A stretch of 64,000 nt of DNA. Origin: Kordia sp. (GTDB lineage Bacteria > Bacteroidota > Bacteroidia > Flavobacteriales > Flavobacteriaceae). The position numbers and the translations under genes were made by a program. The notes below the pieces were generated by a model. The model was not told the origin of the DNA, searched no databases, and worked only from the letters and a program-made list of their open reading frames with translations. Positions 9,636 to 63,912 of the stretch are shown here, in pieces. The stretch's first letter is position 1, and each line of letters opens with the position of its first letter. The stretch covers positions 1 through 64,000 of the forward strand of contig NVVR01000002.1 of NCBI GenBank assembly GCA_002733415.1, in the 5' to 3' direction.

Positions 9636-10661
9636 TCAGTCAGGCTCATTTGTGTTATAAAGCGCTAAAGCAGTTCGTAACTTATAGTTTACTCTTTTTT
9701 TCAAACGTTCTGGCTGAATCACTTTCATGCTTTCCCCAAACCCTAAAATCAGACGTTCCAATTCGTAATTAATTTTTACCTTGATGTTAATGTCAACACT
9801 TCCATTAAGATACTGATGTTCTATAGTTTGTGAGTGGTGTAAAGGTTTGGTAACAACATAAGGAGCATTACTTTTATCAATCCATATTTTAATATTGCAT
9901 GCACGTTCTCCTTGATTAACAGTTACTCCAATAGCATCTTTATAAAATGTATCAGGATCAAAACCTTGATCTAGATACGCTGTTTTTAAATCATAATCAA
10001 TACTGATAATTCTATCTAAAGCTAAATTAGAAACACCATTTGATCCAGCTCTTTTACCAACTAAGAACCAACGGTTGTTATATTCTTTTAAGATATACGG
10101 ATGAAATGTAATTTCAGAAGAATCTTTAGCTTTAAAAGATTTATAGGTTAATTTAATAACAACTTTTTTAAGAATGGCTTGGTATAACTCATCTAAGTAC
10201 TGTAGGCCTTTTAAATTGTCATTCTTATCTAAATGAATAATAGACTGATGGTCTTTTTGTGAAGAATAAACAGAATCTTCTAATCGTTGAAGTACACCGT
10301 CCATTTCTTTAAATAAGGAGAAGTCTTTAAATTGTCTCAATACCGCAATGGCTTCACTCATTACTTTTATATCATTATCAGTTACTGGAATATTCATAAT
10401 ACTATAGGCTGTATCAGTATAGCGATAATATTTTTTGTCGTACACTTCAATGGGTGCGTTATAGCCTAATTTGTCACTACGCATCAACTGTATGTCTAAT
10501 TGTACAGTACGCTTACTAACATTAATGTCTTTTCCTTCATATTCATAAAGGGCATCTGAACAGGCTTCAATTAAATCATTCAAAGTCCATTGCTTATAGT
10601 TGTTGCGTAAACAGTTATCAATGGTTTTGTATCGTATCAGAGCATTCTTATTAGCAGCCAT
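9636..10661 (-). CDS. WYL-domain transcriptional regulator (wHTH-WYL-WCX architecture)
   Basis: N-terminal HTH-like region. Classic WYL motif FHPYILKEYNNRWFLVG. C-terminal WCX-like segment PLHHSQ...LERLILGFGESMKVIQPERL. Confidence 0.75.
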   Translation of the reverse strand: MAANKNALIRYKTIDNCLRNNYKQWTLNDLIEACSDALYEYEGKDINVSKRTVQLDIQLMRSDKLGYNAPIEVYDKKYYRYTDTAYSIMNIPVTDNDIKVMSEAIAVLRQFKDFSLFKEMDGVLQRLEDSVYSSQKDHQSIIHLDKNDNLKGLQYLDELYQAILKKVVIKLTYKSFKAKDSSEITFHPYILKEYNNRWFLVGKRAGSNGVSNLALDRIISIDYDLKTAYLDQGFDPDTFYKDAIGVTVNQGERACNIKIWIDKSNAPYVVTKPLHHSQTIEHQYLNGSVDINIKVKINYELERLILGFGESMKVIQPERLKKRVNYKLRTALALYNTNEPD

Positions 10662-11310: not shown

Positions 11311-12774
<1,464 letters not shown>

Positions 12775-15446: not shown

Positions 15447-15460
15447 TAACTTTCATGTCA

Positions 15461-15602
15461 AAGTAAGAAATAGAGAACGAAAAATCGGAATTGCGATGCA
15501 TAGCATCAGGCATGTAGATTCGAAAGTGATCGTTACGAAGTAATTTCCTATTCTTTGACTTGATTTTTTTGGTTCGTTTTTTTATCAAGAAAAAAATGAA
15601 CA
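15461..15602. repeat. Non-coding ~140-bp conserved block, copy A (homologous to 20570-20712)
   Basis: About 80% identity to copy B, including cttgatttttttggttcgtttttttatcaagaaaaaaatgaa. It starts 15 nt after the stop of the upstream gene. Confidence 0.6.
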
Positions 15603-15864
15603 GATAGTTCTTGAAAGACTTAATATGATGGTTTTAATAAAATTTATTAAATAAACTAACTTTCAAGTTTTATTTAGAAAAACAACAAATAAGCACTCGA
15701 ATTTGGTGAATAGGAACAATTTGCACCATATTTGTAGTAGAATTATTAACAAAAAATAAAACGAAAACCACCTATGACGATATTTTTAAACATAAAAAGG
15801 ACGCTGAAAAGCTATTTTGATTGTAAGAAATAGGTTAATTTTCGAAAAGATATCTCTTTAAAAA

Positions 15865-15895: not shown

Positions 15896-16433
15896 ATGAC
15901 TTTTTTCGAACACTATTTTACTGTTATAAAATTGGAGCTTTAAATGCTAAATACAAGCACAACAATTGGTTGTGAATTTGTTTACTATCTGTAGGAATAC
16001 GGGCAGGGATTCTAGCACCTAAAAACAGCATAACTTACTGGTAACGAGAAATATAAAGGCAGATATTTTCTTGTGTAATCCAAAAAATGAATTGACCTTT
16101 GCATCGCAGTATTACCGAATAAAACGGAACAACTAGCAAAAACTAAATTATTAATCAAACCAATTAAATATTGGAATGACGTATAAATAATTTGAATTAT
16201 TTTTTTACTTAGATGAGGCATAAAATTTAAACATAGCCTCAGTTACGGTTATATTTTATAACAATATATAAGTGAAAAAGGAGCATATTATATATGACAT
16301 TTTAATTTTTAAATGGTTTATCAACACCGAAGTACTATGACTTTATTCAATAGCTACCAATACATTCCACAAGGCCTAGGTGCTTTGTTATGTATGCTTC
16401 GGGATTTCATTCGTAAATAATATTTCCATTATA

Positions 16434-16598: not shown

Positions 16599-18008
16599 AT
16601 GTATAAGAAAAATATAATGGGAAAGAAATTAAGCGGAAGAGACTTAATCAAGTTAGGTTTTCCGCAAAACAATAGTATTAATGTGACTTTAGGTCAGATT
16701 AATAGATATCAGAAAAGAAAAAAGAAAGAACAAATATTACTCGAAGCTAAGCAAGTATTACTACATCCTGAAAATTATAAGGGAGATGGTGTTTGGGGAA
16801 AAATAGCAGAAAGTCTGCTAGATCCAGTACTAGTGACGAAGCAAGTGTTAAACTCAGTACGTGCACCATTTCAAATATTTGGAGAAAATGAAATTGATGA
16901 TAAAGCCAAGTATCAATTATTTGATGCTTTAAAATTACCAGTGGCAGTTGCAGGAGCCTTAATGCCAGATGCACATGCTGGATATGGTTTGCCAATAGGT
17001 GGAGTATTAGCAACAAAAAATGCTGTAATTCCTTATGGAGTAGGAGTAGATATTGGTTGCAGAATGAGTTTAAGTATTTATCCAATACCAACATCTTATT
17101 TAAAAGGAAAGCAGCATCAACTTGCAAATATTTTATCAGAACATACCAAATTTGGAATGTATGAAACACATAAGGTAAAACATGACCATGAAATTTTTGA
17201 GCGTGAGGAATTTAAAACTATTCCTTTAGTAAAGCGATTAAAAGACAAAGCGTACAAGCAATTAGGAACTTCAGGTGGTGGAAATCATTTTGTAGAGTTT
17301 GGAGTAGTAACTATTAAGGATGAAAAGAATGAATGGGACTTACCATTAGGCGATTATGTTGGCGTATTAAGCCATAGTGGTTCTAGAGGATTAGGAGCAA
17401 ATATTGCAAAACATTATACCTATTTAGCTACTAAACAATGTCCCTTACCCAAGCACGTACAGCAGTTGGCTTGGTTGGACTTGAACACACATGACGGGCA
17501 AGAATATTGGTTGGCAATGACATTAGCGGGTGATTATGCGAAGGCATGCCATGATAATATTCATAAACGCATAGGGAAATTGTTAGGAGCAAGACCTGTA
17601 GCTACAATCGAAAACCATCACAATTTTGCTTGGAAACAAGAGGTAAACGGTGAAGAATGTATTGTGCATAGAAAGGGAGCAACTCCTGCTGAAAAGGGTG
17701 AATTGGGAATTATTCCAGGTTCTATGACAGCACCAGGATTTATTGTTCGTGGTCTGGGGAATCAAGATAGTTTAGCATCTGCATCACATGGAGCAGGACG
17801 TCTTTTTTCTAGAAGAAAATGTAAAGAGAAATTCACTAAAAGTGAAATCAAAAAGCAATTGCAAGCAAACGATGTTACGCTTATAGGAGGTGGAGTAGAT
17901 GAAGCACCTATGGCTTATAAGGATATCGAGAAGGTAATGGCGAATCAAAAAGAATTGGTTGAGGTTATTGGAACATTTACACCGAAAATAGTACGAATGG
18001 ACAAATAA
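16599..18008 (+). CDS. rtcB: RtcB-family RNA ligase, release-factor-H-coupled type
   Basis: Canonical motifs PDAHAGYGLPIGGV, VDIGCRMSL, GGGNHFVEFG, HSGSRGLG, HHNFAW and SHGAGR. It lies immediately upstream of prfH. The true start is probably MGKKLSG at about 16617. Confidence 0.85.
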   Translation: MYKKNIMGKKLSGRDLIKLGFPQNNSINVTLGQINRYQKRKKKEQILLEAKQVLLHPENYKGDGVWGKIAESLLDPVLVTKQVLNSVRAPFQIFGENEIDDKAKYQLFDALKLPVAVAGALMPDAHAGYGLPIGGVLATKNAVIPYGVGVDIGCRMSLSIYPIPTSYLKGKQHQLANILSEHTKFGMYETHKVKHDHEIFEREEFKTIPLVKRLKDKAYKQLGTSGGGNHFVEFGVVTIKDEKNEWDLPLGDYVGVLSHSGSRGLGANIAKHYTYLATKQCPLPKHVQQLAWLDLNTHDGQEYWLAMTLAGDYAKACHDNIHKRIGKLLGARPVATIENHHNFAWKQEVNGEECIVHRKGATPAEKGELGIIPGSMTAPGFIVRGLGNQDSLASASHGAGRLFSRRKCKEKFTKSEIKKQLQANDVTLIGGGVDEAPMAYKDIEKVMANQKELVEVIGTFTPKIVRMDK

Positions 18009-18030: not shown

Positions 18031-18723
18031 ATGGACAAAATAATTCAAATAACGGCAGCAAGAGGACCAGCAGAATGTTGTTGGGTAGTAGCTCAAGTAC
18101 TCAAGGTTTTTATAGCAGAAGTTAAGGCTAAAGGAATTGAGTATATAATTCTGCAACGAGAAAAAGGTATTGAAAACGGTACTGTACAATCAGTGAGTAT
18201 TCAGTTATCAGGAACCGATGTGAATAGTTTTTTAACTACCTGGACTGGAACAGTACAATGGGTTGGAACATCTGCATTTCGAAAATATCACAAACGTAAA
18301 AATTGGTTTATAGGGGTGTATGAATTGGAACAATTATCCCTTTCGGAATTAAATGAAAAGGATATTAGTTTTCAAACGATGCGAAGTACTGGTCCTGGTG
18401 GACAAAATGTAAACAAAGTGAATTCAGCAGTAAGGGCTATTCATACTCCAACTGGAGTACAAGTAGTAGCAATGGATAGCCGATCACAACATCAGAATAA
18501 AAAATTAGCAATAACACGTTTAAAGGAAAAGGTAATGGAAGCCAACAGACAACAACTTAAAACCATGGAATTGAACCTATGGAAAAATCATTTGAGTTTG
18601 GAGCGTGGGAATCCGATTAGAGTTTTTAATGGGACTGATTTTAAAAAGAAAAAAGTAATTGCTTCCTATAAAAATAATCGCAATCAGTTAAAAAACGACT
18701 TGCGAAAAGAACTAAAGAATTAA
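18031..18723 (+). CDS. prfH: Peptide chain release factor H (release-factor homolog with a GGQ motif)
   Basis: STGPGGQNVNKVNSAVR GGQ motif. A short RF-like protein of 230 aa, 22 nt downstream of rtcB. Confidence 0.8.
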   Translation: MDKIIQITAARGPAECCWVVAQVLKVFIAEVKAKGIEYIILQREKGIENGTVQSVSIQLSGTDVNSFLTTWTGTVQWVGTSAFRKYHKRKNWFIGVYELEQLSLSELNEKDISFQTMRSTGPGGQNVNKVNSAVRAIHTPTGVQVVAMDSRSQHQNKKLAITRLKEKVMEANRQQLKTMELNLWKNHLSLERGNPIRVFNGTDFKKKKVIASYKNNRNQLKNDLRKELKN

Positions 18724-19849: not shown

Positions 19850-20443
19850 ATGAAAACAACAGATAAAATTATAATAATAGACCTTGAGGCAACTTGCTGG
19901 AAAGGTCCTGTTCCGCAAGGACAAGTAAACGAAATAATAGAAATAGAAATTTGTGTTCTAGACACAAAAACGGGAATCATTTCAAAAAATGAAGGGATTT
20001 TAATAAAACCTGAGCGTTCAACAGTGAGCCCTTTTTGTACCGAGTTAACCACAATTACTCAAGAATTGTTAGATCAAGAAGGAATTTCTTTCGAGCAGGC
20101 TTGTAATGAGCTACGTATACAATACAATAGTTATCAATACACATGGGCAAGTTACGGTGCTTATGATTTAAACATGTTAAAGCAACAATGTAAATTCAGA
20201 GGATTGGATTATCCAATGGCTCAAAATCATATTAATGTAAAAACATTATTTACTAAAGTAAAAGGCTTGAAACGAAAAGTAGGAATGAAAGGTGCTTTAG
20301 AGATGTTAGAAATTCCATTAGAAGGCACGCATCATAGAGGAGTAGATGATGCTAATAACATAGCGAAAATTTTAGACTGGTGTTTAAATACATCAGCTAA
20401 AGCTGAAAGTTGTTGTTTAACTAAGGAAGTGCAATTTTCATAG
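19850..20443 (+). CDS. DEDDh-family 3'-5' exonuclease (ERI-1 / KapD-like)
   Basis: Exo motif I IIIIDLEATCW, motif II YGAYDLNML, motif III THHRGVDDANNIAKIL. Confidence 0.75.
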   Translation: MKTTDKIIIIDLEATCWKGPVPQGQVNEIIEIEICVLDTKTGIISKNEGILIKPERSTVSPFCTELTTITQELLDQEGISFEQACNELRIQYNSYQYTWASYGAYDLNMLKQQCKFRGLDYPMAQNHINVKTLFTKVKGLKRKVGMKGALEMLEIPLEGTHHRGVDDANNIAKILDWCLNTSAKAESCCLTKEVQFS

Positions 20444-20506: not shown

Positions 20507-20569
20507 GTGAGACCTGTTCTATATGTTTTTCTGAATATTATTACTTACTTTAATTAGAGGTTGACAGAT

Positions 20570-20712
20570 TAAGAAATAATGAACGAAAAATCGAAATTGC
20601 AATGCGATAGCATTAAGTATGTAGAATTGAGAGTGAATGGTGCTTTAGCAATTTCCTATTGTCTGTCTTGATTTTTTTGTTTCGTTTTTTTATCAAGAAA
20701 AAAATGAAAAGC
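20570..20712. repeat. Non-coding ~140-bp conserved block, copy B
   Basis: Homologous to 15461-15602. It is followed by a poly-C tract. Confidence 0.6.
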
Positions 20713-21121: not shown

Positions 21122-21550
21122 TGGATTTTTTTGAGTATGATTATAAAATAATAAAAGAAATAGAAAAGTAGTATTTGGACCCTAAGCAGAAGAGAGACAG
21201 TCAGTTGCATATTATCCAGTTATCGGTTGAAAAACGGACAGGAATCGCTATGTCTAAAAATAAGCGTAACTAATTGATTATCAGTAAATTAAATGTAATT
21301 TTTTCTTGTGAAATCTAAAAATAGGTTTCATCTTTGCACCGTAGTTAAGCAACAAATATGTTTATGTTTACTATCTATATAAAAAGACAAATTTTTAAAA
21401 ATATAAATATGATACGTTTTAATTCACATCCATTTTCAAGCCCCCTTTCGCAAAGCCGTCAGGATTATTGTCCGGAAGTAAATAGAAGCGTCTGTAGTAC
21501 TATACAACGAAGGAATATGTAGTTATATATATCTTCGTAAATTACTTAAA

Positions 21551-21574
21551 GGCGCCTATATAGGCGCCTTTTTT
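21551..21574 (+). terminator. Terminator-like hairpin
   Basis: ggcgcctatataggcgcc followed by a T-run. Confidence 0.5.
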
Positions 21575-21771
21575 ATGCGCTGTAATCAGAGCTTTAAAAT
21601 GAAATAAAGTTAATGCAAAAATTGGAGAGTAGGCAAATGTTGGTTTGTTGCGCTCGTTTGCTAAACGAGTTTGTGTAATAGCAATGATTGGTTCAAATGC
21701 TTGCATTCACGAAAACCCAAAAAAAATAAAAATTGCTTGAGTAATTCCGTTGCTCTCCGCAAGAATAAATA

Positions 21772-21845
21772 AGACAAGGTGGCTGAAAGGTTAAGGCAAC
21801 GGTCTGCAAAACCGTTTTTTATGAGTTCGATTCTCATCCTTGTCT
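21772..21845 (+). tRNA. tRNA-Cys (anticodon GCA)
   Basis: Acceptor gacaagg/ccttgtc. Anticodon arm acggt-cTGCAaa-accgt. T-arm atgag-ttcgatt-ctcat. Folded by hand. Confidence 0.7.
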
Positions 21846-21904
21846 CAATGATTGAAGCAGTATCAAACTTGTTTGAAAACTGTGAAAATCCAATTTGTGA
21901 TTTG

Positions 21905-21936
21905 ATGAGAACGCGCAGCAATCTCATCCTTGTCTC
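21905..21936 (+). other. tRNA-Cys 3'-end relic (T-stem plus acceptor 3' strand with an expanded 13-nt loop)
   Basis: atgag-aacgcgcagcaat-ctcatccttgtctc duplicates the 3' end of the adjacent tRNA-Cys. Confidence 0.5.
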
Positions 21937-21941
21937 GTAAT

Positions 21942-22025
21942 GGGAGTTCGCCAGAGTTGGAGAGCTGGGGCGGTCTGTAACACCGTTGTCGAAAGACTGA
22001 GTAGGTTCGATTCCTATAACTCCCA
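21942..22025 (+). tRNA. tRNA-Tyr (anticodon GTA), type II with a long variable arm
   Basis: Acceptor gggagtt/aactccc. Anticodon loop ctGTAac. Variable arm tgtcgaaagaca. T-arm tagg-ttcgatt-ccta. Confidence 0.7.
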
Positions 22026-22122
22026 CAATAAAATAAGGTTCTAGAAAGGGACCGTCAGGTTGAATATATATATAGTTACGGCTGACTATATGAATTTAGA
22101 GATGTATTTAACCTGACAAAAT

Positions 22123-22195
22123 AGTATCGTAGTTCAATGGCTAGAGCACCCGACTGTCTCTCGGGAAGCTGCGGGTTCGAATCCCGTCGGTACTG
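22123..22195 (+). tRNA. tRNA-Asp-like (anticodon GTC), with an atypical U at position 37
   Basis: Acceptor agtatcg/cggtact. D-arm gttc...gagc. Anticodon stem cccga/tcggg with loop ctGTCtc. T-arm gcggg-ttcgaat-cccgt. Confidence 0.55.
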
Positions 22196-22206
22196 CTAAC
22201 TAATTA

Positions 22207-22279
22207 CTGGGAAGATAACGATTGGCTGTTTACCCGCTTTGGATGCGGGAGGTTGCAGGTTCGAATCCTGCTTCTCAGA
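22207..22279 (+). tRNA. tRNA-Pro-like (anticodon TGG), with a non-canonical G8 and a weak D-stem
   Basis: Acceptor ctgggaa/ttctcag. Anticodon arm cccgc-ttTGGat-gcggg. T-arm gcagg-ttcgaat-cctgc. Confidence 0.5.
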
Positions 22280-22533
22280 CGATGTAACCAAAATCAAGCT
22301 TGCTTGAATTTTGGTTTGAGCTGAGACATCGCAGGATGACGTAGTCAATCCTGCTTCTCAGACGATGTGACCAAATCAAGTTATTTGAATTTGGTTTGAG
22401 CTGAGGCATTGCAGGATGACGTAGTCAATCCTGCTTCTCAGACGATGTAACCAAAATCAAGCAAGCTTGAACTTTGGTTTGAGCTGAGGCATTGCAGGAA
22501 AGACGAAGTCAGTCCTTCTTCTCAGACGAATAT
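22254..22533 (+). repeat. Tandem repeat of ~80-83 bp, about 3.3 units. Each unit is a tRNA-like minihelix (acceptor strands plus a T-stem with a 14-nt loop) followed by a perfect 13-bp hairpin.
   Basis: Units begin at about 22254, 22331, 22411 and 22494. Each contains gcagg-atgacgtagtcaat-cctgc-ttctcag-a followed by the hairpin aaccaaaatcaag...cttgaattttggtt and then ctgag(g/a)c. Confidence 0.7.
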
Positions 22534-22609
22534 GCAGGGATGGCGAAATGGTAAACGCACCTGATTTAGAATCAGGATTTTGAGAGTTCGAGTCTCTCTC
22601 TCTGTACCA
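22534..22609 (+). tRNA. Type-I (short variable loop) tRNA with anticodon TAG, identity uncertain. CCA is encoded.
   Basis: Acceptor gcaggga/tctctgt (two G-U pairs), U8, G18G19. Anticodon arm cctga-ttTAGaa-tcagg. 5-nt variable loop. T-arm gagag-ttcgagt-ctctc. Discriminator A, then CCA. Confidence 0.5.
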
Positions 22610-22611
22610 AT

Positions 22612-22683
22612 AGATTTATGGTGTAATGGATAGCACACTAGGTTACGACCCTAGGAGTATGAGTTCGAATCTTATTAAATCTA
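22612..22683 (+). tRNA. tRNA-Arg (anticodon ACG)
   Basis: Acceptor agattta/taaatct. D-arm gtgt-aatggata-gcac. Anticodon arm ctagg-ttACGac-cctag. T-arm atgag-ttcgaat-cttat. Confidence 0.7.
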
Positions 22684-22688
22684 CAAAT

Positions 22689-22759
22689 TGACTTGTGATG
22701 TAATGGTAGCATATAAGATTTTGATTCTTATTGTATAGGTTCAACTCCTGTCAGGTCAA
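22689..22759 (+). tRNA. tRNA-Gln (anticodon TTG)
   Basis: Acceptor tgacttg/caggtca. Anticodon arm taaga-ttTTGat-tctta. T-arm atagg-ttcaact-cctgt. Confidence 0.65.
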
Positions 22760-22766
22760 CTATTAA

Positions 22767-22792
22767 CTGGGAATATAACGATGTTTACCCGC
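22767..22792 (+). other. 5'-half relic of the tRNA-Pro-like gene
   Basis: ctgggaatataacgatgtttacccgctt matches 22207-22245, then diverges. Confidence 0.5.
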
Positions 22793-22836
22793 TTGCTTGA
22801 GATGTTATTAAGTAAAGCCCTATATGAAATCTAAAT

Positions 22837-22900
22837 GTCACACTGAGCTTATCGAAGTGCAATTGATAGTCAAGGTTTTATTGGTTTTCGCGAAGCTCAG
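22837..22900. repeat. REP-like hairpin element, copy 2
   Basis: gtcacactgagcttatcgaagt pairs with ttcgcgaagctcag. Confidence 0.5.
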
Positions 22901-22907
22901 ACAAAAT

Positions 22908-22980
22908 GGTGTTTTCAGCTTATTTGGTAAAGTGCTAGACTGTGAATCTAGAGAACAGGGTTCGAATCCCGAAAACACCC
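22908..22980 (+). tRNA. tRNA-His (anticodon GTG) with an encoded G-1
   Basis: Extra 5' G. Acceptor gtgtttt/aaaacac. Discriminator C. D-arm gctt-atttggta-aagt. Anticodon arm ctaga-ctGTGaa-tctag. The T-stem is imperfect. Confidence 0.6.
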
Positions 22981-22996
22981 AAAATTAAAATAACCT

Positions 22997-23023
22997 ATAC
23001 TACGTAAAATGATTGCGTAGTAG
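22997..23023. promoter_or_regulatory. Palindromic motif, copy c (actacgta-aaatgat-tgcgtagt)
   Basis: The same ACTACGCA-N7-TGCGTAGT family as at 11323 and 12784. Confidence 0.4.
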
Positions 23024-23220
23024 GGTGGGAAGTTTGTAATGTAATTAAAAGCTAATAATAAGTTTAAAGGTTTTGTGTTCTTTTAAACGTTTAAATATCA
23101 AGCTAGTCTTGTTGGGTGTTTCTGTATAGCACTATTGTATAAAGTATTGCAATGATTTTGTATGATGACTTTATATTCAACTAGATTTGGAGGTTTTAGA
23201 TTGTTTACCAAAAAATAATC

Positions 23221-23258
23221 ACACACTGTGGTCATGGGTTCGAATCCCATCCTCATTA
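23221..23258 (+). other. tRNA 3'-half relic (T-arm atggg-ttcgaat-cccat plus acceptor 3' cctcatt-a)
   Basis: There is no matching 5' acceptor strand upstream. Confidence 0.45.
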
Positions 23259-23259
23259 A

Positions 23260-23316
23260 GTTGAGGTAGTTCAGTTTGGTTAGAACAACAGCGTAGATGT
23301 CGTCGGTTCGAATCCG
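23260..23316 (+). other. Chimeric tRNA relic: acceptor 5' plus D-arm (gttc-agtttggtta-gaac) joined to a T-arm (gtcgg-ttcgaat-ccgat), with no anticodon arm
   Basis: Only 12 nt separate the D-arm from the T-arm, and the acceptor strands do not pair. Confidence 0.4.
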
Positions 23317-23342
23317 ATCTTAAACTTTGGAGAAATCCATTG

Positions 23343-23385
23343 GTTTATGTAGCTCAACGGTAGAGCACTACACTCTTTTAGGTAG
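23343..23385 (+). other. tRNA 5'-part relic (acceptor, D-arm gctc-aacggta-gagc, and an anticodon-like arm). No T-arm follows.
   Basis: A D-arm with GG and an anticodon-like stem ctac/gtag. No ttcgaat follows. Confidence 0.4.
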
Positions 23386-23729
23386 AGAGAACAATAGACT
23401 CAAAATCTATTTTCAAAAAGCTGATTATCTTTTTAAACTAATCACCAGCCAGTCACGCTGTAAAATTGATAAAATAATGGATTGAAAATCAGCTATGCTT
23501 TGTAAGCACAAGTGTTTTAAGTGAAGCAATCTTAAATGTACTTTGAATAACTGATTTTTAGTATTGTAAAGGAATTACTTTTTGAGTTTTCTAATGATAG
23601 TTAGCTATTATATATAATTTTCAAAAATGGATTCTTGACAGTTATAATATGAGTGTATTCCGTATGTAAAAGATGATTTTCTTTCTGTTGTTTTTAATAA
23701 ATTAAAGAAACTAAGTAATAAATAGAATA

Positions 23730-39889: not shown

Positions 39890-41512
39890 ATGCAACACAA
39901 CAACAATACTATTATTATGGCTGATAATGATACAAAGAAAATGATTACGTTAAAACAATACGGAATCAAGAATGCAACAGTAAACTATAATTTATCGTCG
40001 GATGAATTACATGATCTAACTATAGCAAAAGGACAAGGTGTTGAAGCTGCTTCTGGAGCTTTGGCAATTAATACAGGTGAGTTTACTGGTAGATCTCCAA
40101 TGGACAGGTTTATTGTTAAAGATGCAATCACTGAAGATAAAGTTTGGTGGGGGAATATCAACCTTGCTTTTGATAGTGATAAGTTTCAAAAATTATATGA
40201 TAAAGTAGTTACTTACTTGTCAGAAAAAGAAGTTTTTGTAAGAGATTGTTATGCTTGTGCTGACGAAGATTACAAATTAAACATTAGAGTAATTAATGAG
40301 CGTCCATGGTCAAACATGTTTGCCCATAATATGTTCTTAAGACCAACAGAATCGGAATTAGAAAATTTTAGCCCAGAATGGACTGTAATAAATGCTCCAG
40401 GTTTTATGGCTGACCCTGTTATTGATGGTACACGCCAACATAACTTTGCTATTTTAGATTTTACACGTAAAATTGCTTTAATAGGAGGTACAGGATATAC
40501 AGGAGAAATCAAAAAAGGAATTTTCTCTGCATTAAACTTTATTTTACCAGTTGATAAAAATACTTTACCAATGCATTGTTCTGCAAATGTTGGTGAGGAT
40601 GGTGACACTGCAATTTTCTTCGGATTATCAGGAACTGGAAAAACAACTTTATCATGTGATCCAGCACGTAAGTTAATTGGTGATGATGAGCACGGTTGGA
40701 CAAATGAAAATACAGTATTCAACTTTGAAGGAGGTTGTTATGCTAAAGTAATAGATCTTTCTGCTGAAAAAGAGCCGGAAATTTATAACGCTATAAAAAG
40801 AGGAGCAATCCTTGAAAACGTTATTTTAGACGATAAAGGAGCGGTAGATTATGAAGACACTTCAATTACACAAAATACACGTGTAAGTTATCCAATTTAT
40901 CATATTGATAATATTCAAAAACCATCAATAGGAAAGAATCCTAAAAACATATTCTTTCTTACTGCTGATGCATTTGGTGTATTGCCTCCTATTTCTAAGT
41001 TAACTCCTGGTCAAGCAGCGTACCACTTTATTTCAGGATATACAGCAAAAGTAGCGGGTACTGAAGCTGGAATTAACGAGCCATTACCAAGTTTTTCTGC
41101 TTGTTTCGGAGCGCCATTTATGCCATTACATCCTACAAAATATGCTGAAATGCTAAGTGTTAAAATGCAAGAAGCAGGTGTAAACGTATGGTTGATAAAC
41201 ACTGGTTGGACTGGTGGAGGTTACGGAGTTGGTAACAGAATGAAATTAAGTTCTACAAGAGCTATGATTACAGCAGCTTTAAACGGTGGGTTAAAAGATG
41301 TTGAGTTTGTGCAGCACCCAATTTTCGGATTGGATATGCCTACAACTTGTCCTAATGTTCCAACAGAGGTGTTAAATCCTAGAGGAACCTGGTCTGATGC
41401 TACAGAGTATGACGCTAAAGCTAACGAATTAGCAGCATCGTTTAAAAAGAACTTCGCAAAGTTTGAAGACTATGCAAACGAAGAAATAATGAAAGGTGGT
41501 CCGATTGTATAA
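39890..41512 (+). CDS. pckA: Phosphoenolpyruvate carboxykinase (ATP)
   Basis: Kinase-1a motif GLSGTGKTTLS and a PckA-like length. Confidence 0.9.
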   Translation: MQHNNNTIIMADNDTKKMITLKQYGIKNATVNYNLSSDELHDLTIAKGQGVEAASGALAINTGEFTGRSPMDRFIVKDAITEDKVWWGNINLAFDSDKFQKLYDKVVTYLSEKEVFVRDCYACADEDYKLNIRVINERPWSNMFAHNMFLRPTESELENFSPEWTVINAPGFMADPVIDGTRQHNFAILDFTRKIALIGGTGYTGEIKKGIFSALNFILPVDKNTLPMHCSANVGEDGDTAIFFGLSGTGKTTLSCDPARKLIGDDEHGWTNENTVFNFEGGCYAKVIDLSAEKEPEIYNAIKRGAILENVILDDKGAVDYEDTSITQNTRVSYPIYHIDNIQKPSIGKNPKNIFFLTADAFGVLPPISKLTPGQAAYHFISGYTAKVAGTEAGINEPLPSFSACFGAPFMPLHPTKYAEMLSVKMQEAGVNVWLINTGWTGGGYGVGNRMKLSSTRAMITAALNGGLKDVEFVQHPIFGLDMPTTCPNVPTEVLNPRGTWSDATEYDAKANELAASFKKNFAKFEDYANEEIMKGGPIV

Positions 41513-44445: not shown

Positions 44446-44928
44446 TTAATTACTTAATATTTTTTTTAAACGTTCTTTAATACGTGTAATACGCACACCA
44501 ATATTGTTAGTATTGGTTCCAATAATGTCAGCGATTTCTTTATACGACTTCTCTTCTAGGTAAAGTAAAATAACCCCTCTATCAATCTCAGATAATTGCC
44601 TGATGGCACCATATAGTTGATTAAGAGATTCATCAGCAAATGCACGACTATCTACTAAAACCTCGTCAGGTAGTAAATCAGAAGGAGCATTTTGTTTGTT
44701 GTTTTTCTTTTTCTTTAAGAAAGTTAAACAAACATTTAATGACAACCTGTATATCCAAGTAGACCATGCTGATTGCTCCTTGAAGCTGTCTTTGCTGCGC
44801 CAAATTTGCAAACATACTTCTTGGTAATAATCCTCAAAATCTTCTTGAGTATCGGTATATGCTCTGCAAATTTTGATGATAATTGCGGCATAGGGTAAAA
44901 TTTGTGTGGTGTAAAAATCGCTACTCAC
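44446..44928 (-). CDS. ECF-type RNA polymerase sigma-70 family factor
   Basis: Region 2 (YYQEVCLQIWRS...WIYRLSLNVCL) and a region 4 HTH (SYKEIADIIGTNTNNIGVRITRIKERL). Confidence 0.8.
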   Translation of the reverse strand: MSSDFYTTQILPYAAIIIKICRAYTDTQEDFEDYYQEVCLQIWRSKDSFKEQSAWSTWIYRLSLNVCLTFLKKKKNNKQNAPSDLLPDEVLVDSRAFADESLNQLYGAIRQLSEIDRGVILLYLEEKSYKEIADIIGTNTNNIGVRITRIKERLKKILSN

Positions 44929-54295: not shown

Positions 54296-54528
54296 GTGAT
54301 TGTTGAATGATGATTTTCGATTGTTGATTTTAGAAGTAAAAACCAAAATAAAACTGCATTAGGGATAGAAGCGACATCCTTTTTAAGCGTCCGTTCGAGT
54401 GAATTTATGAAGTGATAACGAATGAATTTGTACCGAGAACAGCTTAAAAAGATATAGCGGATAGCCCGACCAAAATTCGTGAAATTTTGGAAATGCACAA
54501 AAACAATAAATTTAAATAGAGTAGTAAT

Positions 54529-54573: not shown

Positions 54574-55536
54574 ATGATCAGAAAAGTTTCATTAGTAATA
54601 TTAGGAACAATATTAGTTACCTCATGTGTGTCAAAGAAGGTTTTTACCGATTTAGAAAGCAATTATGCTAAATTAAAGAAAACGCATAGAGCACTAGAAG
54701 GTAAAAAGAAAGATTGTGATGAGCTAACAGCTCAGTTAGAAACTGATTTAGCTACCACAAATTCAGAATTAGAAAAGTTAAAAGCTGACAAGGCAAATTT
54801 AGCAAATGAAATAGCAAATTCTCAAGCAAAAGTGGATGGATTAGGGAAGTCATATAAGCAATTGGAGGAGAGTAGCGCATCAGAATTAGCAAAGAACACT
54901 GCTAAGAATAGAGCATTGTTGCAGCAGTTAGAAGATAAAGAAAAAGCATTAGCAGCTGAAAACGCTCGTTTAATAGGATTGCAAAAAGAATTAGATTCAC
55001 GATCTAAAAGAGTTGACGAACTGGAAGGTGCATTAGCGGCAAAAGATGCAAATATGAAAGCGTTGAAAAATTCTATTTCTAAAGCCTTAACAAATTTTGA
55101 AGGAAAAGGACTGACTGTAGAACAACGTGATGGGAAAGTATATGTTTCTATGGAGAACAAATTATTGTTCCAATCAGGAAGTTGGAAAATTGGTACACAA
55201 GGAAAAAAAGCAGTAACACAATTAGGGGCAGTTTTAGCGGAAAACCCTGAGATTAACGTGTTGATTGAAGGGCATACCGATAATGATGCCTTTAATGGGA
55301 AAGGTGATATTTCAGGTAACTGGGATTTGTCAACTAAAAGAGCTACCGCAATTGTAACTATTTTACAAGAAAATAAAAACATCAATGCAGAGAGTTTAAC
55401 TGCTGCTGGTAGAAGTGCATATTCGCCAATTGCGAGTAATGATACTCCAGAAGGAAAAGCTAAAAACCGTAGAATAGAAGTGATTTTAACACCTAAGTTA
55501 GATGAGGTTTCTAAGTTATTGAGTGAAGTACAGTAA
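54574..55536 (+). CDS. OmpA-family lipoprotein with an extended coiled-coil region
   Basis: Lipobox VTSC. Long coiled coil. C-terminal OmpA domain NVLIEGHTDNDAF...STKRATAIVTIL...NRRIEVIL. Confidence 0.75.
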   Translation: MIRKVSLVILGTILVTSCVSKKVFTDLESNYAKLKKTHRALEGKKKDCDELTAQLETDLATTNSELEKLKADKANLANEIANSQAKVDGLGKSYKQLEESSASELAKNTAKNRALLQQLEDKEKALAAENARLIGLQKELDSRSKRVDELEGALAAKDANMKALKNSISKALTNFEGKGLTVEQRDGKVYVSMENKLLFQSGSWKIGTQGKKAVTQLGAVLAENPEINVLIEGHTDNDAFNGKGDISGNWDLSTKRATAIVTILQENKNINAESLTAAGRSAYSPIASNDTPEGKAKNRRIEVILTPKLDEVSKLLSEVQ

Positions 55537-55704
55537 AAAAAATGAAGTTGAAATCGAACTCGAAATTTAAATGAACGTTTCATTTCAAGTGTTTTTATGG
55601 GGTGTAACGAAGAGAAAAAATAGCTTGCCCTCAACTTGATTGGGGTATCGAGAAGTTTTGTTTATTTAAGATTAACGATTGCTGATTTTAGAATAATAAT
55701 AAGG

Positions 55705-63102: not shown

Positions 63103-63912
63103 TTATTTTGTTCTATTGTATATTGGGAGGTAAAAGAATGAAATGACGCCAAAAACGATGTTTAGTAAGGTTTGAGAGCCCCACATAATCCAACCAATAG
63201 CTAAACCACTTTGATTGCTTATATTAAATAAGTTTAGAGTCTCTTGAATTACTAGCGGAAAACTACCTAATCCGCCATTTGTTACAGCCATTGTAAATGA
63301 TCCTGTCACAAACGCAACTATTGCAGTACTTATTGGGGTGTTTATGGTTTCTTTTACTGAGAAAAAGATTACATAAAACATTAAAAAGTACATAGTCCAA
63401 ATGAAGATGGTGTGGAATATAAAAGGCCACTTTTTTTTCATTGTAACTATACTCAAAACTCCGTCTTTTAAACCAATAAAAAAGTTTTTTATTTTACGTA
63501 AAATGGGGTTGTTGGTTTTTCTTAGGACAAACCAACCAGTACTTACGATTATTGAAATCAAGGCTAATGTGAGGAACAGTGAAGTTGGGTTTTCTGTAAT
63601 TTTTGTTCTAATGCTAATGAAAACAGGATTTATGGCATCTATAATCATGTCGTATTGAAAAGCTAATGCAATAAAAACAAAAACCATACTCATAATTAAG
63701 TCGGCTATGCGTTCTGCTATTATTGTTCCGAAAGCTTTTTCAAAAGGGATTCCTTCGTAGGTGGTAAGTGTTGTGGCTCTTAATATTTCTCCTGATCGTG
63801 GGATTCCTAAATTGGCAAAATAGGCAATCATTACTGCCATAAAACTATTGATGAATTTTGGTTTGTAACCGAGTGGTTCAAGGGTGAATTTCCATCGGTA
63901 AGCTCTTGACAA
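63103..63912 (-). CDS. Flippase-like (UPF0104 / lysylphosphatidylglycerol-synthase TM-region family) membrane protein. The N-terminus may extend toward the window edge.
   Basis: Polytopic membrane protein with a conserved GIPRSGEILRATTL segment. Confidence 0.5.
   Translation of the reverse strand: MSRAYRWKFTLEPLGYKPKFINSFMAVMIAYFANLGIPRSGEILRATTLTTYEGIPFEKAFGTIIAERIADLIMSMVFVFIALAFQYDMIIDAINPVFISIRTKITENPTSLFLTLALISIIVSTGWFVLRKTNNPILRKIKNFFIGLKDGVLSIVTMKKKWPFIFHTIFIWTMYFLMFYVIFFSVKETINTPISTAIVAFVTGSFTMAVTNGGLGSFPLVIQETLNLFNISNQSGLAIGWIMWGSQTLLNIVFGVISFFYLPIYNRTK

Follow-up and report, generated by a model that had tools for sequence, protein, structure and literature searches.

What are the units of an ~80-bp tandem repeat that follows a tRNA-Pro-like gene inside a dense tRNA array, and do they serve the array or only litter it? 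The repeat lies in the first 64,000 nucleotides of contig NVVR01000002.1 (GenBank assembly GCA_002733415.1), a Flavobacteriaceae sequence; this whole stretch is called the window. The repeat unit is real and is probably a structured RNA. As a conserved trailer, one unit follows the tRNA-Pro-like gene in long tRNA arrays both of Aquimarina and of the clade to which the window belongs, and the window carries three units (U1, U2 and U3). Our preferred reading, to which we give a probability of about 45%, takes the unit for a structured module that derives from a tRNA, is specific to this lineage, serves the array transcript as a spacer or in processing, and has been amplified at this locus.

According to Tandem Repeats Finder, the window has one strong array, at 22264-22529, with a period of 80, 3.2 copies, 89% matches and a score of 407. 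A covariance model (CM) of the unit scores the three window copies at 90–101 bits (E about 1e-19 to 1e-21). Both results bear out the tandem repeat that a previous sequence-only reading of this DNA placed from the tRNA-Pro-like gene onward. Read directly, the layout is three contiguous units of 80–84 nt at 22280-22526, right after the tRNA-Pro-like gene, and tRNA-Leu starts at 22534. Each unit runs in the order cgatgt, hairpin 1, tgag, ctgag(a/g)c, at(c/t), gcagg, a 14–15-nt segment, cctgc, ttctcag and a. Hairpin 1 is AT-rich and about 13 bp long (13 nt against 14 nt, with a bulged A, in U1). The second, tRNA-like hairpin has strands that are copies of the tRNA-Pro acceptor and T stems. The T-stem 3' strand, the acceptor 3' strand, the discriminator A and the trailer cgatgt are identical in the units and in the tRNA-Pro-like gene, so the units derive from the 3' part of this gene; the tRNA origin and the matching 5' strand in the sequence-only reading are both upheld. 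The adjacent tRNA-Pro(TGG)-like gene is copied only in part: its acceptor and T stems are present in the units, its D and anticodon arms are missing. Other details change. The hairpin described as a perfect 13-bp one is interrupted by a bulged A in U1 and by a mismatch in U3 and includes G.U pairs in U2, and it precedes the tRNA-like hairpin instead of following it, U3 running into tRNA-Leu. ARAGORN and Rfam tRNA matches cover no unit, and the units are not canonical tRNAs. The tRNA-Pro-like gene has an Rfam tRNA match at 22209-22277 (32 bits, gathering score 29); ARAGORN misses it in the window and calls its orthologue in three related contigs (L002, L010 and L012).

In the tRNA-like hairpin the TTCGAAT T loop is replaced by A(T/A)GACG(T/A)AGTCAAT. 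This segment is predicted to pair as gac-GNA-gtc, lengthening the stem gcagga/tcctgc. What was taken for an expanded T loop therefore pairs internally in the predicted fold and the 7-nt T loop is gone; no canonical T loop (T54-Psi55-C56...A58) closes the T stem of the units in this fold. The acceptor/T stack of the units consists of 6 bp and a C.U mismatch, a 3-nt bulge (atc/att) on the 5' side, and then 5–6 bp. U1 (z = -4.6), U2 (z = -3.3) and an Aquimarina unit (z = -4.5) fold much better than their shuffles. U3 is the exception, with a predicted fold no better than that of its shuffles (z = -0.67). There is no terminator-like site or T run in the repeat. A global fold of the whole array, in which the units pair with each other, was discarded as an artefact expected of tandem inverted repeats.

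The sequence variation among units is informative about hairpin 1. Our alignment contains 11 units from about three lineages. Six of the 12 pairs of hairpin 1 are changed on both sides, and 98.5% of the cells are paired. None of 500 shuffles reaches the covariation score or the paired-cell percentage of hairpin 1, and 46 of the 500 match the observed six pairs with change on both sides. Sliding the registers by 1–3 columns lowers the pairing to 28–45%. Within the window clade, two independent and recent double substitutions (C-G to U-A and U-A to C-G) are found, together with a one-base deletion matched on both strands. Compensatory substitutions of this kind show hairpin 1 to be under structural selection, as far as about three lineages can. 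The + strand has 13 G.U cells versus 3 A.C cells, and G47.U78 at an acceptor-like position is present in 7 of the 11 units; this excess favours an RNA on the tRNA strand over a constraint on duplex or cruciform DNA. Other intergenic spacers of the array have visibly diverged between the window clade and Aquimarina, while the unit is conserved. The conservation extends to the single-stranded linkers (CGAWGT and CAT) and to the GAC-GNA-GTC-AAT loop. By manual count, the tRNA-like hairpin is about 91–93% identical between genera, compared with about 75–85% for the array tRNAs Arg and Gln. A compensatory change in the acceptor-like stem, read from the diverged hairpin at 22843-22900, was dropped since the alignment of this hairpin to true units is unreliable.

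The unit is confined to one kind of locus. We scanned for the exact core of the tRNA-like hairpin in one genome per species (185,579 species), in metagenomes and in viral contigs. The species genomes give three matches, all in Aquimarina (A. rubra and two uncultured isolates). The metagenomes give four related contigs, which represent three distinct arrays of 1–2 units each, and one GC-rich chance match; the viral contigs give no match to this exact pattern. All real matches lie directly behind a tRNA-Pro-like gene within a tRNA array, and the covariance model finds no copy beyond the 11 known units in 207 kb of window and related loci. The matches are never generic intergenic repeats apart from tRNA loci, and a dispersed repeat of the repetitive extragenic palindromic (REP) or bacterial interspersed mosaic element (BIME) type is rejected, in line with the sequence-only reading, because they occur only in tRNA-Pro trailers of tRNA arrays. 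The repeat is also not a CRISPR array, as stated before, because it has no variable spacers: the whole 80-nt unit is repeated at 89% identity. Pfam scans cover 43 of the 45 window open reading frames (ORFs) of at least 150 aa, the two others being those at 44446-44928 and 63103-63912, and detect no Cas-related, integrase, transposase or RAYT family; the ORFs at 40270-40722 and 54822-55634 overlap longer opposite-strand ORFs. Copy number ranges from one to three in close relatives (Table 1). The array leader of L010 is 94% identical to that of the window, yet L010 has one unit and the window three. Two hairpin variants and two loop variants are combined in mosaic fashion among the units. Varying copy number and mosaic units point to unequal recombination as the source of the extra copies. 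We infer that the three window copies arose by unequal homologous recombination between units and that their number has no special function; the serial slippage proposed earlier survives in this form, with relatives that have 1, 2 or 3 mosaic units.

How would the unit act? It would be co-transcribed with the array on the + strand and fold into two hairpins, as a structured spacer whose tRNA-shaped stem may be cut by the enzymes that process tRNA ends (RNase P/RNase Z punctuation). Alternatively, the unit may shield the tRNAs on either side of it within the polycistronic precursor by means of its stable hairpins. It would not be a decoding tRNA. The unit-bearing arrays adjoin RtcB/PrfH RNA-repair operons or have a promoter-region module in common with them.

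Several observations weigh against a structured spacer or processing module. With its T loop lost and a 3-nt bulge at the junction, the predicted hairpin is a poor mimic of a canonical minihelix, and we therefore give the processing version moderate weight only. The suggestion that each unit is a minimal substrate of RNase P, RNase Z and the CCA-adding enzyme is weakened in the same way: the acceptor and T strands are present, but the T loop is replaced, and the bulge and the C.U mismatch interrupt the stack. The acceptor-like and T-like stems are without covariation, their pairing being inferred from sequence and energy only. Because this pairing is nearly invariant, covariation speaks neither for nor against the 12-bp helix of a minihelix. 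The covariation counts of hairpin 1 are inflated by relatedness, as 11 units come from about three lineages. Conservation of the tRNA-like hairpin may reflect gene conversion from the tRNA gene, or else constraint. Terminal copies are decaying, with mismatches in U3 and in the second units of L008 and L012. Finally, Kordia and Nonlabens arrays with the same gene order carry no unit: Kordia has an 11-nt Pro-Glu spacer, and Nonlabens has only an unrelated 9-bp hairpin behind Pro. The unit is therefore dispensable for such arrays and is a lineage-specific addition.

Much of this would also be expected if the units were neutral debris, namely decaying pseudo-tRNA fragments that arose by duplication and internal deletion in an array prone to recombination, were passed on and multiplied by unequal crossing-over, and have no function. 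Arrays without the unit, a copy number that varies among near-identical relatives, and stem mismatches in terminal units all agree with debris, as does the abundance of fragments in the array (the truncated second Pro copy, the Cys relic and the tRNA-like pieces at 23190-23390). We nevertheless consider neutral debris somewhat unlikely. The pairing of hairpin 1 is kept by compensatory changes and a matched indel, the unit is conserved across genera whose other array spacers visibly differ, and the linkers and the mini-hairpin loop are conserved with it.

Table 1. Features of the window and of related loci. Positions are those of the window unless a contig (L number) is named; CM, covariance model.
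Feature	Location	Strand	Remarks
tRNA array	21624-22980	+	Ser(GCT)-like with T-loop insert, Cys, Tyr, Asp, Pro-like, Leu, Arg, Gln, His
tRNA-Pro(TGG)-like gene	22207-22279	+	C1-G72, A73; T arm and 3' end are the repeat template
U1	22280-22362	+	CM 101 bits; fold -31.3 kcal/mol
U1 hairpin 1	22286-22316	+	aaccaaaatcaag / cttgaattttggtt, one bulged A
U1 tRNA-like hairpin	22321-22362	+	ctgagac-atc-gcagg-atgacgtagtcaat-cctgc-ttctcag-a
U2	22363-22442	+	CM 96 bits
U2 hairpin 1	22369-22396	+	one bp shorter, matched deletion on both strands; G.U pairs
U2 tRNA-like hairpin	22401-22442	+	
U3	22443-22526	+	degenerate; CM 90 bits
U3 hairpin 1	22449-22479	+	contains mismatch
U3 tRNA-like hairpin	22484-22526	+	loop aaagacgaagtcagt; C.U mismatch in inner (T-like) stem
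Unit copies	window		3 units
Unit copies	L008 (= L002)		2 units
Unit copies	L010		1 unit
Unit copies	L011/L012		1 unit behind each of two tRNA-Pro-like genes
Unit copies	Aquimarina, each of three genomes		1 unit
Relic behind tRNA-Cys	21847-21936	+	spacer hairpin ~21857-21885, then atgag-aacgcgcagcaat-ctcat, acceptor 3' strand ccttgtc
Truncated second tRNA-Pro-like copy	22767-22794	+	5' part
Diverged hairpin ctgagctt...aagctcag	22843-22900	+	ends ctcagac just before tRNA-His
T-loop insert	21697-21743		inside Ser(GCT)-like gene 21624-21759
T-loop inserts, relatives	L010; L008 9584-9633; L005 ~6983; L006 ~4206, ~4549		L010, in Ser and Leu; L008, in His
WYL regulator	9636-10661	-	divergently oriented; RNA-repair island directly upstream of array
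RtcB-like	11386-12774		island; followed by two RlaP proteins, then DUF434/DUF5616
RtcB	16599-18008		island
PrfH	18031-18723		island; followed by TPR protein and unknown protein
RNase T-like exonuclease	19850-20443		island
Upstream module	15986-16110, 21220-21345; L005 5147-5323; L006 6165-6336; L007 2101-2273; L017 6633-6823; L140 6883-7002		
~150-nt element	15456-15603, 20562-20711; L003 4173-4321; L008 677-812		
Flavo-1 RNA	54354-54475		Rfam RF01705, 52 bits; fits Flavobacteriia origin

The window is part of a low-GC (~32%) Flavobacteriaceae chromosome with type IX secretion domains, PorP/SprF and Flavo-1 RNA, and belongs to a metagenome contig of 200 kb. Its chromosomal genes encode type IX secretion system proteins, PEPCK, class II aminoacyl-tRNA synthetase domains (PF00587 and PF03129) and a RadA-like protein, and among named organisms Aquimarina has the best matches to its RNase T-like protein (77–79% identity). 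A phage origin was rejected, blastn against phages matching individual tRNAs only and the window being chromosomal. The array packs nine tRNA or tRNA-like genes into 1.4 kb. Within 10 kb of it lie two RtcB, one PrfH, two RlaP, RNase T-like and SPFH genes, the SPFH gene standing behind the array. By its gene clustering and neighbours the locus is a long tRNA array (L-array) linked to RNA repair, of a known kind. Arrays are linked to RNA-processing genes in Kordia, Nonlabens and other contigs as well. Long tRNA arrays beside RtcB are thought to back up translation upon tRNA or ribosome damage. In Rfam scans of 21400-23300, only tRNA exceeds the threshold; Clostridiales-1 reaches 19.6 bits over the units, against a threshold of 48.

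This setting underlies a different explanation, in which the hairpins are decoys or signals of RNA damage. With C1-G72, A73 and possibly a CCA tail, they would titrate toxins or enzymes that act on acceptor ends, or their fragments would be the ligand of the WYL regulator. The unit is indeed located within an RtcB/PrfH/RlaP/RNase T-like island next to a divergent WYL-domain regulator gene, the acceptor identity bases of tRNA-Pro are retained, and several copies would increase the dose. The basis of this explanation is purely contextual, however, and we find it improbable. Such a relic occurs only at tRNA-Pro, and weakly at tRNA-Cys; the T loop is absent; related islands do without the unit, and close relatives have one copy.

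A further idea comes from computed folds. In the minimum-energy fold of tRNA-Pro plus one unit, for the window as well as for Aquimarina, the 5' acceptor strand of the tRNA pairs with the downstream copy of the 3' strand, while the tRNA's own 3' strand closes hairpin 1. The duplicated 3' strand therefore allows two competing folds in the thermodynamic prediction. The tRNA-Pro precursor might then adopt two exclusive folds, the unit being a removable 83-nt insert between T arm and acceptor strand, or RNase P and RNase Z might release CCA-tailed decoy minihelices; we see only a slim chance for these schemes. If cells did use two folds, the array could contain a stress-responsive switch, or an array tRNA could mature by RtcB-dependent cutting and religation. 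Either of these, or the release of decoys, would add a new type of tRNA-linked RNA element to those of bacteria.

The same island is found in variable versions in five contigs of related Flavobacteriaceae (L004, L013, L016, L017 and L140). Its components there are WYL, RtcB, DUF434/DUF5616, RNase T-like, PrfH, TPR, SPFH and RNaseH-like proteins and a 455-aa short-chain dehydrogenase. Arrays of tRNA genes flank the island on one or both sides in L004, L013 and L017, and ARAGORN detects no tRNA in L016. In A. mytili the RtcB-PrfH operon is present, and the adjoining called genes of this contig (L140, taken without a tRNA scan) leave no gap that would fit a tRNA array.

In the window, the array and the RtcB-PrfH operon have paralogous upstream regions that carry the same module, the motif gagagacagNcagttg...ggacagg followed by a Bacteroidetes-type promoter-like ...TTTG. 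Aquimarina and Nonlabens have the conserved module ahead of their arrays, and A. mytili has it ahead of RtcB; its promoter-like motif was read by eye. Its presence suggests that the array and the RtcB operon are regulated together, and the neighbouring WYL protein may be the regulator. An upstream region common to the two parallels the published co-regulation of such loci (PMC8421152). Between the promoter-like region and the first tRNA, the segment 21358-21577 contains a 54-aa small ORF and a strong terminator hairpin (aaggcgcctatataggcgcctttttt). This leader is 90–95% conserved in related contigs, and Kordia and Nonlabens have an analogous leader and terminator. The segment may act as an attenuator in which a leader peptide senses translational stress. 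In addition, a paralogous non-coding element of about 150 nt occurs behind the DUF5616 gene and behind the RNase T-like gene, the two copies being 82% identical. Its ends pair in the predicted fold, and it matches no Rfam family.

The array contains other relics. The sequence-only reading correctly pointed to a tRNA-Cys relic with an expanded loop (aacgcgcagcaat) at 21905-21936. This loop is A-rich and continues with GC-GNA-GC and AAT, and a convincing 5' acceptor strand is absent. L012 and Aquimarina (L006) also keep the relic, the triloop being a different one. A generic pattern of T stem, mini-hairpin and AAT matches the window 18 times, versus 22 times in shuffles, and only the Pro and Cys relics are meaningful. 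Behind tRNA-His, the region 23190-23400 has tRNA-like pieces, one of which has an intact T arm and no anticodon arm. A second piece gives an Rfam tRNA match at 23260-23326 (37 bits) without a normal anticodon arm, and a 5' half with a D arm is also present. A YrlA (Y RNA-like) match at 23229-23287 stays below threshold (32 bits versus 69). In L008, an ORF of about 200 aa with a KxDG-type motif (TRKFDGTS, read by eye) lies between tRNA-His and the trailing tRNA-like region, at 9697-10297. It may encode an ATP-dependent RNA ligase, and it has no counterpart at that position in the window.

The Leu-Arg-Gln block of the array is flanked by two copies of the tRNA-Pro-like gene plus unit. Both are complete in L011/L012 (L012 3990-4165); the second copy is truncated and diverged in the window and L010, and L008 is without the block. 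As judged from these comparisons, the block is a cassette-like rearrangement by recombination between repeats.

Different array tRNAs carry, between TTCRA and AAT of the T loop, a separate element of about 47 nt, ATGC-N2-3-GCAT-TCACGA...TGAG(C)T. Its presence varies among close relatives: tRNA-Ser carries it in the window and L010 and is intact in L012. The element is also found in a further Aquimarina tRNA-like sequence, and one copy is inverted and lies in an anticodon loop whose sequence on that strand is TTAGAA. When the insert is removed in silico, tRNA-Ser, tRNA-His and tRNA-Leu become detectable by ARAGORN again. No copy occurs outside arrays in about 270 kb; a viral scan with a 14-base core of the insert was set aside as uninformative, with more than 100 chance matches. 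Its two orientations, the fixed adjoining pentanucleotide and the small hairpin at its start suggest a miniature element acting at the DNA level, perhaps of the IS200/IS605 type. The insert may be such a miniature IS200/IS605-like element, or an intervening sequence beside RtcB ligases. In Aquimarina arrays (L005 5900-7000, L006 3700-5800 on the minus strand, L007 2780-4160), hairpins are inserted in the loops of additional tRNA genes. Among them are GC-rich T-loop hairpins (ccctgcccg...cggcaggcggg; cctgtctgcctcaggtaga) and D-loop hairpins (cctgcctgcgccgagcttcggcaggcaag). There is also a tRNA-Tyr with an anticodon-loop insert of about 55 nt, and a tRNA-Asp in which ccccgc-ctag-gcgggg takes the place of the T arm.

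The repeat itself could likewise be a DNA-level element, such as a recombination or hairpin site of BIME/REP type, the end of a single-stranded DNA transposon, or an attachment-site (att) scar at the tRNA-Pro 3' end. Its layout of A, hairpin, inverted A', loop and A is formally like that of alternating REP arrays, direct Pro-plus-unit copies flank the Leu-Arg-Gln block, small elements do insert in array tRNA loops in either orientation, and mini-hairpins of the C(GNA)G type have very high stability as single-stranded DNA. This explanation is nonetheless very doubtful: the scanned ORFs lack integrase, transposase and RAYT, no copy is found beyond the tRNA-Pro trailer in the 207 kb of loci or in the genome, metagenome and viral scans, and the G.U excess on one strand, with a C.A mismatch on the opposite strand in 7 of 11 units, disagrees with a duplex or cruciform constraint. 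An att scar would retain the original T loop, and the integration scars proposed by the sequence-only reading are unlikely, given the altered T loop, the missing cargo and no integrase among the scanned ORFs of the 64 kb.

As this locus shows, long tRNA arrays can retain structured modules derived from tRNAs and multiply them. The units and the loop-insertion element make the tRNA genes of the array a playground for rearrangement. To our knowledge, the internal non-tRNA parts of long tRNA arrays are hardly described.

Among known systems, partial tRNA-like stem-loops in longer transcripts include mascRNA and the MHV68 tRNA-miRNA units. Plant mitochondrial t-elements are also partial tRNA-like stem-loops and provide RNase P and RNase Z cleavage signals that define neighbouring RNA ends (Forner et al. 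2007, PMC1920247). The t-elements are the closest functional analogue, as the mechanism proposed here would be the same, a signal for RNase P/Z cleavage. They differ from the units in keeping a T-loop-like structure, in their demonstrated cleavage, and in organisms and origins; the units have a paired mini-hairpin and putative processing. Were the units processed in the manner of tRNAs, bacteria would have in them a counterpart of organellar t-elements and a natural 'tRNA punctuation' system; otherwise the locus is a well-documented case of concerted evolution of tRNA relics. The tRNA 3'-end repeats at att sites resemble the units in that T-stem and acceptor 3' strands are repeated behind an intact tRNA gene. 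Unlike att repeats, the units come without integrase or cargo, include the inverted 5' strand, have the T loop replaced, are 80 nt long and are conserved across genera. In enterobacteria, BIME-2/REP arrays are tandem alternating inverted palindromes with two kinds of linker and a period of about 80–100 bp, and REPs occur in hundreds of dispersed copies unrelated to tRNA. The formal layout is similar, but the unit is restricted to one type of locus. YrlA, a bacterial Y RNA and tRNA mimic of rsr-rtcBA operons, is like the unit a tRNA-like non-coding RNA beside RtcB. YrlA has D and T arms and a Ro-binding stem, whereas the unit has neither, and no TROVE/Ro match is found among the scanned window ORFs.

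The array as a whole agrees with a 2021 paper (PMC8421152), which describes long tRNA arrays with rtcB nearby and co-regulated, Bacteroidetes being among the phyla listed. Dense extra tRNA genes, a Bacteroidetes host, adjoining RtcB and RNA-processing genes, and the common upstream region seen here are shared with the arrays of that paper. A term search of the paper finds neither tandem tRNA-derived hairpin units nor loop insertions. Set beside these systems, the unit is a new variant of tRNA-derived structured elements: real, conserved, unusual and lineage-restricted.

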